Part shown: piece after piece, positions 35,016-38,150 of the stretch
Position numbering within the stretch: the first letter of the stretch is position 1
How the letters are laid out: every line of letters begins with the position of its first letter
From: a virus
IMG/VR virus record: IMGVR_UViG_3300045988_079560
Strand: one strand, 5' to 3'
Length of the DNA: 64,000 nt
Position numbers and translations under genes: made by a program
Notes under the pieces: model-generated
Seen by the model: only the letters and a program-made list of their open reading frames with translations
Databases searched by the model: none
Told to the model about the DNA's origin: nothing

Positions 35016-35690
35016 ATGAATGAAACAGAACAGGTAATTGACGGATTAGATGAGGTTGAGATCGCAAATACCTCTATTGATGAAATTGACAGCGAAAACA
35101 TCAATTTAATTTTTGTCGGAATCGACAAGTCTGGTTCTATGGGAATGTATGAAATAGATATGGTAAAAGCTCTTTCGGATTTCAAAGATGCACTTATCAA
35201 TTCCAAGGAATGTGATGAGATTCTGGTTGCAAGAGCAGACTTCTCCGACAGTGCAACCGTAGGGGGCTATAAACGCATTACAGAATTTGACACTTCGTAT
35301 AGCACCGATGGATGTACAGCTATGTACGATACGATCATTGATGGAACTGAGAAGTTGAAAGAATACAGAGACTTCCTCAAAAATGAGGGAATGAGAGTAA
35401 AGGCCGTGTTTGCAATTTTCGGAGATGGGATGGATAACTCTTCTCAGCCGGGAGGGTTTGCAAAGGCAAAGAAAGCGATAGAGTATCTGAACGTGGAAGA
35501 AATCGTTACTGCGTTTATCAGTTTCGGAGGACAGGCAACACAGGAAGCGAAAGACCTTGGATTCAAGAATATCCTCGATGTAAGCAGTTCTGCATCAGAA
35601 CTCAGAAGAGCTTTCAACTGCTTATCAAAATCAGTGATTGAAAACTCCAAGAGTGCCGTATCGAAACAGGATGATTTTTTTGACGTATAA
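35016..35690 (+). CDS. vWA-domain protein (TerY-like)
   Basis: 224 aa; MIDAS GIDKSGSM. Confidence 0.75.
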   Translation: MNETEQVIDGLDEVEIANTSIDEIDSENINLIFVGIDKSGSMGMYEIDMVKALSDFKDALINSKECDEILVARADFSDSATVGGYKRITEFDTSYSTDGCTAMYDTIIDGTEKLKEYRDFLKNEGMRVKAVFAIFGDGMDNSSQPGGFAKAKKAIEYLNVEEIVTAFISFGGQATQEAKDLGFKNILDVSSSASELRRAFNCLSKSVIENSKSAVSKQDDFFDV

Positions 35691-35701
35691 AAAATGAGAG
35701 T

Positions 35702-35738
35702 AGAACGGTGATCCTAAAAGGGGTTGCCGTTCTTTTTT
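35702..35738 (+). terminator. rho-independent terminator/attenuator between the vWA and PP2C genes
   Basis: agaacgg...ccgttct stem followed by tttttt. Confidence 0.5.
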
Positions 35739-35753
35739 GTGGGAGGAAATACA

Positions 35754-36410
35754 ATGGTTATAAATAAAATCGGTCAGCAACATATCGACTACGGTACGAA
35801 TTGCCAGGACTACGGAATTGAATTTGATGGGATGAAAGTTGTTTGCGATGGCTGTTCGGAGGGAAAACATTCGGAAGTTGGAGCAAAAGCGTTTTGCCAT
35901 CTTTTGAAAAATGACAGCAGAATTATACATGAATGTAGTGTATATGCTGCCGCAGCCGCTTTTGGAGAGATACTTGGTCTATTCGGGCAGACTTCCGGCT
36001 CAATCAGAGATTTCCTTTGTTTCACGATCCTTATGGTTACTGAAAATGAGACACATTTCATGGTAGATTACTGCGGAGATGGTTTTATTGTAAAAGAACG
36101 TCTGGACGGAACGATTGAGTTTGAAGAATTATCTGACGGAGAATACCCGAAATACTTTGCCTATAATTATGTGGATAAGGATATGCTCAAACAGTACAAA
36201 GATGGTGTCATTTTTTCCACAAAGGCTTTTCCAAAAGATGAATACAGGAATATTGGTGTAGCGTCTGACGGAATACGATTTGCCATGAAAGATGAACAAT
36301 TCAAGAAAGAATTTACGGAAGCCCTGCAGAGCGGTAAGGAAGTAAGGGTAAAGAGGTTTATAAACAAACATCAGAGAGTATTCCAGGATGATACAACAAT
36401 CGTATTGTAG
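35754..36410 (+). CDS. PP2C-family Ser/Thr phosphatase
   Basis: 218 aa from ATG 35754 behind gggagg; NCQDYG and VCDGCSEGKHSEVGA motifs. Confidence 0.65.
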   Translation: MVINKIGQQHIDYGTNCQDYGIEFDGMKVVCDGCSEGKHSEVGAKAFCHLLKNDSRIIHECSVYAAAAAFGEILGLFGQTSGSIRDFLCFTILMVTENETHFMVDYCGDGFIVKERLDGTIEFEELSDGEYPKYFAYNYVDKDMLKQYKDGVIFSTKAFPKDEYRNIGVASDGIRFAMKDEQFKKEFTEALQSGKEVRVKRFINKHQRVFQDDTTIVL

Positions 36411-36419
36411 GAGGGCATT

Positions 36420-38150
36420 ATGAAAATGGCACTAACGAGGATAGGAAAAGAAAAGATAAGACAGCTTACCCCCATAACGGAGGGAGGCGAGGGATATATC
36501 TATGAGTTTGGCAACGATATTCTGAAAATTTACAAACCCTGTGTTGATATTGCAGCCAAGGAAAAGAAAGTTGCCATGCTCATTGACAAACCTCTGCCAA
36601 AGGAGGCTATTAAACCGATTACGGCAGTGTATGACAATAACAATAAGTTTATTGGTTACATTATGCCAAAAGCCGTAGGAGAGGAAGTAAGAGTTCTCAC
36701 AAGTAAAAAATATCTGAAAGCGAATGGGATAACCACGAAAGATATTTTGGAAATTCTCGTAAAGGTACAGGACACCGTGAGAGATATACATTCTGCCGGA
36801 GTGTGTATTGGGGATCTGAACGATCAGAACATCCTCTTTGACAAAACTGGAAATGTGTACTTTATAGATTGCGATAGTTGGAGCGTGGAAGATGAAAAAT
36901 GCGAAGTTTGCATGGACTTATTCAAAGATCCATTGATGAAAGGAAATGATTTTTCAGAGGAAACAGACACATACGCAGAGGCAATTTTGATTTGGAAAAC
37001 CCTTACAAGGATTCATCCGCATGGTGGGACTGTGACACCAGATATGGATATTGTAGAACGTATGAAACGAGGAATATGCGTAATAGACAATCCAAAAGTA
37101 AAAATACCAAGAACGATTAAACCGTGGAAAAACTTATCCCCTTATCTGGTTGATTCTCTGAAAAAGATTTTTGAGAATAAGAGCCGATCTATGGGGGATG
37201 AATTAAAACACATGGCAAAGCACCTTAAATTCTGCGATGTACACCAGGAATTTTATTATGGCAAATATGCTCGTTGTCCGCTATGTGATAATAATGCAAA
37301 TGTTATTACTAAGCCGGTATCACAAGGGGTAACAGGAGGACTTACACTTATCACGATGCTCAAAGGAAACGATGTAAAAATTGTTCTAAATGAGCAGTGT
37401 TATATCAATAATGCCGGAGAAGTAGTGGAAATTAAGAATGAGAATAAATTCGCATACGAAAGCGGAATTAAATATCATTTTGCAGAGGTTGGAGCAGAGA
37501 ATATTGTAATAAAAGCGGATGATAGATCGTTCTGGTTTACCACGGATAGAGAATATGTGTTTGAGAAGAAACACAAGAGTCCGATTTATGCGGCAGGAGA
37601 TTCGGTATACTTCATAAGTCCTGCCAATACATTAACTTCCATTCAGATCACAAAATCAGGCAACGGAATACGGACGATTACAAAATGTGGGTATGAGAGT
37701 TACTTTGCGGTATCTGAGGGACATTCGTGTGTTGTGAGTAGATTTGCAGACAATCTCATTGTGAATCTGGATGGGAAAAATATTGAGATACCATACACTG
37801 ACACTGTGAACAATTATGGAATCCACAGGGATAAAGTAACCGGAGGATGGCTTATTGTATTAGAAAACGGAGCCGGACAGTTTTTTACCTTTGTGTGCAA
37901 TGAACATGGAGTAGCGTATAGCGAGGATCGTATTAAATATCAATGTAGGCTTGGCAATGTATGTTTTTATAACTCCAATATCTCAATACCTATTGATGGG
38001 AATATCAGAATATATTCGTACCAGAAACAGGCATTTAAAGATTTTGAGTGCGAAGCCGTATCACCGGATAGCTGTTTAATCAAAGATCCCACAGCATTTA
38101 CGATCATCAATGATGAAAATATTTATAGACTTGGGAGAACTGTACGATGA
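36420..38150 (+). CDS. Ser/Thr protein kinase with a ~300-aa C-terminal extension
   Basis: 576 aa; GGEGYIY...LKIYK; catalytic-loop-like IGDLNDQNILF; YFIDCDS (DFG-equivalent); CPLC zinc knuckle. Confidence 0.7.
   Translation: MKMALTRIGKEKIRQLTPITEGGEGYIYEFGNDILKIYKPCVDIAAKEKKVAMLIDKPLPKEAIKPITAVYDNNNKFIGYIMPKAVGEEVRVLTSKKYLKANGITTKDILEILVKVQDTVRDIHSAGVCIGDLNDQNILFDKTGNVYFIDCDSWSVEDEKCEVCMDLFKDPLMKGNDFSEETDTYAEAILIWKTLTRIHPHGGTVTPDMDIVERMKRGICVIDNPKVKIPRTIKPWKNLSPYLVDSLKKIFENKSRSMGDELKHMAKHLKFCDVHQEFYYGKYARCPLCDNNANVITKPVSQGVTGGLTLITMLKGNDVKIVLNEQCYINNAGEVVEIKNENKFAYESGIKYHFAEVGAENIVIKADDRSFWFTTDREYVFEKKHKSPIYAAGDSVYFISPANTLTSIQITKSGNGIRTITKCGYESYFAVSEGHSCVVSRFADNLIVNLDGKNIEIPYTDTVNNYGIHRDKVTGGWLIVLENGAGQFFTFVCNEHGVAYSEDRIKYQCRLGNVCFYNSNISIPIDGNIRIYSYQKQAFKDFECEAVSPDSCLIKDPTAFTIINDENIYRLGRTVR

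Follow-up and report, generated by a model that had tools for sequence, protein, structure and literature searches.

In an uncultured human-gut phage, a triad of the TerY-P type, consisting of a von Willebrand factor A (vWA) protein, a PP2C-family phosphatase and a Ser/Thr kinase, forms part of a conserved four-gene cassette in which the triad is preceded by a gene for a nicotinamidase (Nam). The DNA analysed, referred to here as the window, is a stretch of 64,000 nucleotides from the IMG/VR record IMGVR_UViG_3300045988_079560. The cassette is mobile: several unrelated phage lineages have captured it. Its bacterial copies belong to a nicotinamide adenine dinucleotide (NAD) salvage regulon, putatively the NrtR regulon. 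We read it as a phospho-regulated nicotinamide-recycling module captured by phages, possibly one that counters NAD depletion, and assign this reading a probability of about 45%. An earlier note on this DNA had treated the triad as the unit and the nicotinamidase as a mere neighbour; its three genes are real, while the conserved unit contains four. The members of the cassette and their parts are as follows.

34095-35003, plus strand: PncA-type nicotinamidase of 302 amino acids (aa), assigned from its family profile against PDB, conserved active-site residues and synteny.
35016-35690, plus strand: TerY/YegL-like vWA protein of 224 aa with the motif DKSGSM and a Ser-rich C-terminal tail, assigned from its profile against YegL and the residues of its metal-ion-dependent adhesion site (MIDAS).
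35702-35739, plus strand: intrinsic-terminator-like hairpin with a 14-bp stem, a 4-nt loop and a T6 run, detected by folding and a terminator scan, with the ribosome-binding site (RBS) GGGAGG downstream.
35754-36410, plus strand: PP2C-family Ser/Thr phosphatase of 218 aa with NCQD and DGCSEG..SEVGA, assigned from PF13672, metal-site residues and the PphC profile.
36420-38150, plus strand: whole kinase of 576 aa with IGDLNDQNILF and FIDCDS.
36420-37199, plus strand: YegI-type kinase domain (aa 1-260) with GDLNDQN and IDCDS loops, assigned by BLASTP, hhalign and Foldseek.
37224-37295, plus strand: Zn-ribbon-like element (aa 269-292; C272, H275, C286, C289), assigned from conserved Cys, the YegI alignment and the model.
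37305-38147, plus strand: predicted C-terminal beta-propeller (aa 296-576), from AlphaFold2 and Foldseek.

Loci related to the cassette were recovered through the kinase, and the window proteins were searched against them by tblastn. The order nicotinamidase, vWA, PP2C, kinase was present in all 27 distinct Firmicute-type loci in which the kinase homologue is full-length and the upstream DNA suffices; these comprise Lachnospiraceae isolates and metagenome-assembled genomes (MAGs) as well as three or more unrelated phage backbones. Co-conservation in related phages, the lack of which the earlier note had named as a refutation, was borne out by these comparisons, the order being kept in all adequately flanked loci if the deletions in L046-L048 and L038, described below, are set aside. 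The nicotinamidase is the best-conserved member, with 71-91% identity compared with 42-76% for the kinase. Two Gammaproteobacteria MAGs (L087, L088), the chromosome of Desulfonema ishimotonii (L093) and two phage-like contigs of 732 kb and 300 kb (L094, L095) have the tetrad too, there with kinases of ~560 aa that form a sister clade (29-30% identity). Since a classical vWA-PP2C-kinase triad without the nicotinamidase exists in a Bacilli MAG (L091), the nicotinamidase marks a subfamily of such triads. In a 167-kb phage contig (L049), NadE and PncB are located between the vWA gene and the PP2C and kinase genes, and no nicotinamidase gene was found in the 8 kb upstream of the kinase.

Several loci show additional features around the tetrad. 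In the phage-like locus L075 (5799-6614, 7474-8614 and 9288-9980), extra genes separate all four members, with gaps of 1110, 1043 and 672 nt and the order kept, and HNH/NUMOD-like homing endonuclease genes are found elsewhere in the locus. In three Lachnospiraceae loci (L077:2364-7035, L078:11915-16529 and L083:4287-8901), the tetrad is followed by three large conserved genes with products of about 370, 790-815 and 375 aa. In the L085 MAG, the nicotinamidase (7665-8575) and kinase (10001-11338) genes are each apparently split by a frameshift, reflecting decay or assembly error. The Ro-like DUF2828 vWA protein was considered as a fifth member and rejected; it is found with the cassette in this phage lineage and one other phage-like contig (L054, L059-L063).

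NAD genes recur with the cassette. In L087 and L088, the gene order is NAPRTase-family protein, nicotinamidase, vWA, PP2C, kinase and NrtR (Nudix plus NrtR winged helix, E 1e-17), and NrtR, identified by Pfam, directly flanks the cassette in L069, L080, L082, L085 and L093. L080 additionally encodes an ADP-ribosylglycohydrolase and an upstream open reading frame (ORF) read by eye as LigA, the NAD-dependent DNA ligase. In L050-L053 and L064-L067, a second PncA-like gene with Prs-like, NAMPT and NadE genes lies one gene away from the cassette, and in L049 the interleaved NadE and PncB genes have NMNAT and Nudix genes nearby. In phages, the cassette neighbours RNA-repair and tRNA genes. Some bacterial copies adjoin IbrA/IbrB-like genes.

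Bacterial copies also share a putative operator with NAD-salvage genes. This palindrome of 19 bp, TATTATC-N5-GATAATA, is located in Lachnospiraceae chromosomes between the promoter and the RBS of the nicotinamidase gene, and it occurs likewise upstream of the NAD-salvage operon (PncA-like/Prs/NAMPT/NadE) and of nrtR. L050 contains three matches against 0.09 expected, a count reached by 0 of 200 shuffles, and L080 contains three against 0.37 expected; the operator regions lie at L050:5644-5662 and 11168-11241, at L080:6636-6694 and in other Lachnospiraceae loci. Because it is common to the nicotinamidase gene, the NAD-salvage operon and nrtR, the bacterial tetrad appears to be co-regulated with NAD salvage. 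An adjacent nrtR and a shared palindromic operator (19-21 bp) recall the NrtR regulon (PMC2330246), to which bacterial copies of the cassette may belong; the genes nrtX and nrtY listed in the same paper could not be linked to it. Phage copies are without the operator, and the window phage is also without an adjacent nrtR. A second palindrome, ATGATA(G/T)TATCAT, is present in several loci in a promoter-proximal position upstream of the first.

The first gene of the cassette belongs by family to the PncA-type nicotinamidases. As a single sequence it matched only nicotinamidases in PDB, and the top matches of its family profile were all nicotinamidases (29iv, 4.5e-13; yeast Pnc1 2h0r, 2.8e-12; Pyrococcus horikoshii PncA 1ilw, 2.3e-9; Mycobacterium tuberculosis PncA 3pl1, 1.4e-8), with other isochorismatase-like hydrolases ranking below them. 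D51, H160 and C240 are invariant, and D93, H95 and K194 are near-invariant. The Asp-Lys-Cys catalytic triad (D51, K194, C240) on the isochorismatase fold and the Asp/His/His metal site (D93, H95, H160) are both present, as in PncA and Pnc1; the metal-site motifs DTHTPH and WSYHC align with DWH and WPxHC of the PDB nicotinamidases. These residues predict nicotinamidase activity, and a ~50-aa insert found across the family leaves several substrates possible. Known PncA/Pnc1 proteins comprise about 180-220 aa, whereas the cassette enzyme reaches 302 aa through this insert and a ~45-aa N-terminal extension in Firmicutes. It also adjoins the vWA/PP2C/kinase triad, with which it is presumably co-transcribed, a link that the NrtR regulon paper (PMC2330246) does not describe. 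All matches listed in the nicotinamidase homologue search had at least 78% identity, so that this search gives no view of distant contexts.

The three triad genes encode proteins that are predicted to be active, as their catalytic and metal-site residues are invariant. The vWA protein, recognised earlier by its DKSGSM motif, yielded no Pfam match at E 0.1; it matched phrog_7371 at 6.6e-9, and its family profile aligned with Escherichia coli YegL over 168 columns (hhalign probability 95.3%, E 2.4e-8). Its MIDAS site is complete and invariant (D37, S39, S41, T101, D137), as are S204, S206 and S211. The phosphatase, likewise correctly proposed from the motifs NCQD and DGCSEG..SEVGA, matched PP2C_2 (PF13672) at E 1e-10, above the gathering cut-off, and its metal-site residues D19, D32, G33, D109, D172, G173, D212 and D213 are invariant. 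Its family profile aligned with PphC over 207 columns (probability 82.5%, E 9.8e-6). The ORF list places its start at TTG 35724; the gene most likely begins at ATG 35754, behind the RBS GGGAGG, and this start is the only change to the coordinates given for the three genes.

The kinase scored 30.8 bits against Pfam Pkinase, just below the cut-off of 31.7, and its fold was supported by other means. [quoted passage not shown] BLASTP matched it to YegI at E 2e-13, and hhalign aligned the two over 271 columns, through the Cys-rich element, with a probability of 98.3% and E 2.5e-14. Both enzymes share the non-canonical loops GDxxxxN and DxD, and YegI, with these loops, is an active kinase (10.1101/819920). 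Among 49 homologues, the Gly-rich loop (G22, G23, G25), K36, D132, N137, D150 and D152 are invariant. The kinase assignment made from IGDLNDQNILF and FIDCDS is upheld by the structural model and the YegI profile, and the Pfam profiles support the PP2C fold above, and the kinase fold just below, their cut-offs.

The ~300-aa C-terminal region, for which the earlier note had recommended a structure prediction, is modelled as a Zn ribbon followed by a beta-propeller. In the ribbon, modelled as two short beta-hairpins, C272, C286 and C289 are invariant. A Foldseek search with the full-length model returned kinases only and hid the C-terminal domain, which was therefore modelled separately. Residues 294-576 alone gave an all-beta model of 28 strands (pLDDT 89.5; predicted template-modelling score, pTM, 0.85), and its best PDB matches were beta-propellers (Tako8, BamB, Vps18, the BPB domain of DDB1 and RACK1) at E ~1e-6. 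The best BFVD structure for this domain is another gut-phage Ser/Thr kinase. The propeller family is rare: out of 1.84 billion representatives, a profile of the domain recovered 103, which with few exceptions are the C-termini of ~560-600-aa kinases. The main kinase cluster alone comprises 3447 member sequences. A small number of longer proteins, 1530-1604 aa in length, terminate in this domain as well (P0435, P0443, P0444, P0447, P0448, P0454 and P0459).

These results place the triad within the TerY-P type (the triad of Anantharaman, Iyer and Aravind 2012), whose published definition combines a TerY-like vWA protein with a PP2C phosphatase and with a Ser/Thr kinase that has a Zn ribbon at its C-terminus (PMC11090510). 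The window encodes a vWA protein with a MIDAS site, for which YegL served as the proxy of TerY-like proteins, a PP2C-like phosphatase next to it, and a kinase with a C-terminal Zn ribbon, which the propeller then follows. For comparison, yegL, pphC (yegK) and yegI were taken from E. coli K-12. Since the vWA and PP2C proteins had no useful BLAST match to YegL and PphC, family profiles were compared instead; the three alignments reported above (95.3%, 82.5% and 98.3%) show homology of all three proteins to YegL, PphC and YegI, and the genes are adjacent and co-directional in both cases. The profile homology and the match to the published definition together uphold the TerY-P-type composition, including the parallel with E. 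coli yegI/yegK/yegL drawn in the earlier note.

The window kinase nevertheless differs from its known relatives. YegI is a two-pass membrane protein (10.1101/819920), whereas the window kinase has a soluble beta-propeller tail; the kinases of CoCoNuT-linked triads stop at the Zn ribbon (PMC11090510), to which the window kinase adds the propeller. The company differs as well: TerY-P triads are associated with tellurite-resistance, DNA-restriction or DNA-processing genes (PMC11090510), whereas the cassette lacks such neighbours and is found with NAD salvage and NrtR genes or, in phages, with RNA-repair and tRNA genes.

Between the vWA and PP2C genes lies the hairpin that the earlier note had described as a stem with a T-run, and both its reality and its conservation in the phage lineage were confirmed. 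Its folding free energy of -23.7 kcal/mol (z -4.8) was equalled by none of 200 shuffles. L054 and L059-L062 have a hairpin in the same position whose stem differs in sequence, and compensatory changes affect 3 of 13 pairs among six sequences; in L055 and L076, the gap contains other hairpins. In most bacterial copies this gap spans only 10-39 nt and has no hairpin, which makes the hairpin a feature of certain lineages rather than a property of the system. A putative role as a partial terminator, confined to some phage lineages, is plausible.

Nicotinamide is a product of NAD-consuming enzymes, including the NADase effectors of bacterial defence. The nicotinamidase of the cassette would deamidate it to nicotinic acid, which could enter the Preiss-Handler route through PncB, NadD and NadE, enzymes that would be supplied by the host here and are phage-encoded in some phages. 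The kinase and phosphatase may constitute a reversible phospho-switch acting on the vWA protein, with its Ser-rich tail, and/or on the nicotinamidase. The propeller could serve as an input or docking domain, and the MIDAS site of the vWA protein as a metal-dependent adaptor. By lowering read-through, the hairpin would cause the nicotinamidase and the vWA protein to outnumber the phosphatase and the kinase. For the phage, the benefit would be that NAD remains available during infection, possibly in the face of NAD-depleting immunity. A more specific form of this proposal, which we regard as somewhat unlikely, is that the cassette represents a previously undescribed, phosphorylation-gated pathway of NAD+ recycling via nicotinic acid, by which phages of Firmicutes and Proteobacteria survive NAD-depleting immunity and in which the kinase/PP2C/vWA switch senses NAD breakdown or the state of infection.

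Phage NAD reconstitution is an established form of counter-defence, performed by NARP1 (Adps and Namat), NARP2 (Nampt and Nmnat) and NARP3 (PnuC and NadR) (10.1101/2024.02.11.579819; PMC13464706). The cassette resembles these systems in that it consists of phage-borne NAD genes starting from NAD breakdown products or precursors, and the Prs-like and NAMPT-like pair beside bacterial copies represents the two enzyme classes of NARP1 (Adps, Namat). It differs in taking a deamidating route from nicotinamide to nicotinic acid that would use host PncB, NadD and NadE, and in having a signalling triad attached. A tblastn search of the 64-kb window with Prs-like, NAMPT, NAPRT, NadE and NMNAT queries found nothing, PnuC and NadR not being searched for specifically. 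A search of the NARP papers (10.1101/2024.02.11.579819; PMC13464706) found no mention of a nicotinamidase or a kinase, and literature searches that paired nicotinamidase with TerY, vWA, PP2C and kinase, or with reconstitution of NAD by phages, yielded no paper in which these components are combined.

Several observations weigh against nicotinamide recycling as the function of the cassette. As no PncB, NadE or NAMPT homologue is encoded in the window, the phage would depend on its host for the subsequent steps, and removal of nicotinamide would oppose salvage of the NARP1 or NARP2 type. Lachnospiraceae chromosomes encode a second, small PncA-like protein in the same regulon (171 aa; Pfam Isochorismatase; nicotinamidase-type motifs by eye), which, together with the 50-aa insert, suggests that a different pyridine amide may be the substrate of the cassette enzyme. 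The palindrome described above is without the GT-N7-AC core that is usual in NrtR sites, which as a rule are palindromes of 21 bp (PMC2330246), so that NrtR is its putative regulator. In Beggiatoa alba and B. leptomitoformis (L092, L096), a full-length propeller-kinase is an orphan: the 7 kb around it contain neither a nicotinamidase gene nor genes for a vWA or PP2C protein. Finally, the triad has been lost and the nicotinamidase kept in L046-L048, which indicates that the triad is dispensable for phage propagation.

These three loci, from otherwise near-identical phages, carry a deletion bounded by vWA residue 128 and kinase residue 418, which removes the C-terminal half of the vWA protein, PP2C and most of the kinase and leaves the nicotinamidase intact. 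It lies between the copies of an imperfect ~20-nt direct repeat, AAAATGnGGGnATGAGAGT (window 35385-35405 and 37680-37700), with an out-of-frame junction near L046:8001-8031. The opposite partial loss is seen in L038 (6624-6645), where the nicotinamidase gene and the first 16 vWA codons are gone.

The earlier note had suggested anti-phage defence or superinfection exclusion. On this account, a TerY-P-type system on a prophage would sense infection through the triad and trigger an abortive or protective response, with the nicotinamidase as an accessory or effector. The homology of the triad to YegL/PphC/YegI lends it some weight, as modules like TerY-P are reported to work as defence systems by themselves (Gao 2020, cited in PMC11090510), and it is consistent with the position in a prophage accessory region, the natural deletions and the proximity of some bacterial copies to IbrA/IbrB-like genes. 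The kinase of the defence form ends in an OB fold (Gao 2020, as summarised in PMC11090510), whereas the window kinase ends in a beta-propeller. The operator is common with NAD-salvage genes, the annotated bacterial flanks look housekeeping with no evident defence islands, and the cassette is paired with a salvage-type enzyme and occurs in the 300-kb and 732-kb phage-like contigs. PADLOC-DB hidden Markov models run on the window proteins gave no match for the vWA or PP2C proteins and only generic ones for the kinase (mad6, MkoA, PD-T4-6 and Stk2); E. coli YegL and PphC, used as controls, likewise had no match, so this negative is uninformative. The defence suggestion found no support in the analysis, and we consider it unlikely.

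A second alternative holds that the isochorismatase-fold enzyme is an effector switched by the triad, destroying nicotinamide and so starving NARP1 or NARP2, or destroying nicotinamide mononucleotide, nicotinamide riboside or NAD, as a weapon in phage-host or phage-phage conflict. The presence of a second PncA-like protein in the same bacterial regulon fits this idea, and a special substrate or partner is suggested by the family-specific ~50-aa insert between two conserved metal-ligand motifs together with the extreme degree of conservation; in being tightly coupled to a signalling triad, the enzyme also resembles the effectors of sensor-effector systems. The catalytic and metal residues are nevertheless those of ordinary nicotinamidases, the best PDB matches are nicotinamidases, and the neighbouring PncB, NadE and NMNAT would use the nicotinamidase product, which makes such a weapon decidedly unlikely. 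Phage kinase activity is itself an established counter-defence, as with the T7 kinase (PMC13645617), yet a general host-takeover kinase of that kind, with its own phosphatase as a brake and a historical, functionless link to the nicotinamidase in the phage, is very improbable despite the disarming of many defences by bulk phosphorylation (PMC13645617) and the gut-phage kinase as closest BFVD structure, since the order of the four genes persists in different phyla and in unrelated phages, even with genes inserted (L075), and NAD genes recur with the cassette.

The phage that carries the cassette in the window is matched at 97% by a 6.5-kb fecal 'Bacteriophage sp.' fragment. In the phage GenBank collection it matched only two fecal fragments, short and without annotation, and, distantly, kinases of huge uncultured phages, and 48 IMG/VR contigs were 96-100% identical over the region. 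The cultured Lachnospiraceae strain Diplocloster hominis CSJ-3 has the same genes on a 355-kb contig with 95-100% protein identity, which identifies the phage as a prophage of D. hominis or a close relative; the cassette lies within the accessory region of the D. hominis prophage.

Elsewhere in the window, 11 tRNA genes (27303-31488 and 39842-40059), an SPP1-type portal and a Band-7 protein are encoded, as are two proteins connected with RNA.

7115-8398, minus strand: RtcB RNA ligase.
32581-34032, plus strand: DUF2828/TROVE-like (Ro-like) vWA protein, phrog_850.

The 11 tRNAs, RtcB and the Ro-like vWA protein suggest an RNA-repair and tRNA-replacement toolkit. Among related loci, L063 encodes what reads by eye as an RNA ligase, and Thg1 is present in L057 (precomputed Pfam) and L063 (by eye). 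A block at 9296-11187 on the minus strand, opposing the main direction of transcription, encodes an FtsK/SpoIIIE-like ATPase as well as a small protein of the integrase family (198 aa). Downstream of the cassette, a gene of 104 aa (38147-38461) has a start that overlaps the kinase stop (ATGA). This gene and the next one (38468-39211) make up a local variable spot, as relatives with 97% identity in other regions have either diverged versions of them (52-83% identity) or other genes in their place; being variable among these relatives and absent from distant loci, the 104-aa gene was rejected as a member of the cassette.

NAD depletion and reconstitution form a central front of the conflict between phages and bacteria, as exemplified by NARP1-3. 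TerY-P/YegIKL triads are widespread, and we know of no input, substrate or output for them. The subfamily described here is tied to one enzyme, a nicotinamidase, and one regulon, that of NAD salvage and NrtR, which provides a concrete and testable output. Genetics is feasible, because the host is cultured, as Diplocloster hominis CSJ-3 with its prophage, and natural triad-deletion variants exist. If nicotinamide recycling is the true function of the cassette, it would be the first physiological role for a triad of the TerY-P/YegIKL type, and the picture of the conflict over NAD would widen to include a regulated route by deamidation, borne by phages abundant in the human gut.

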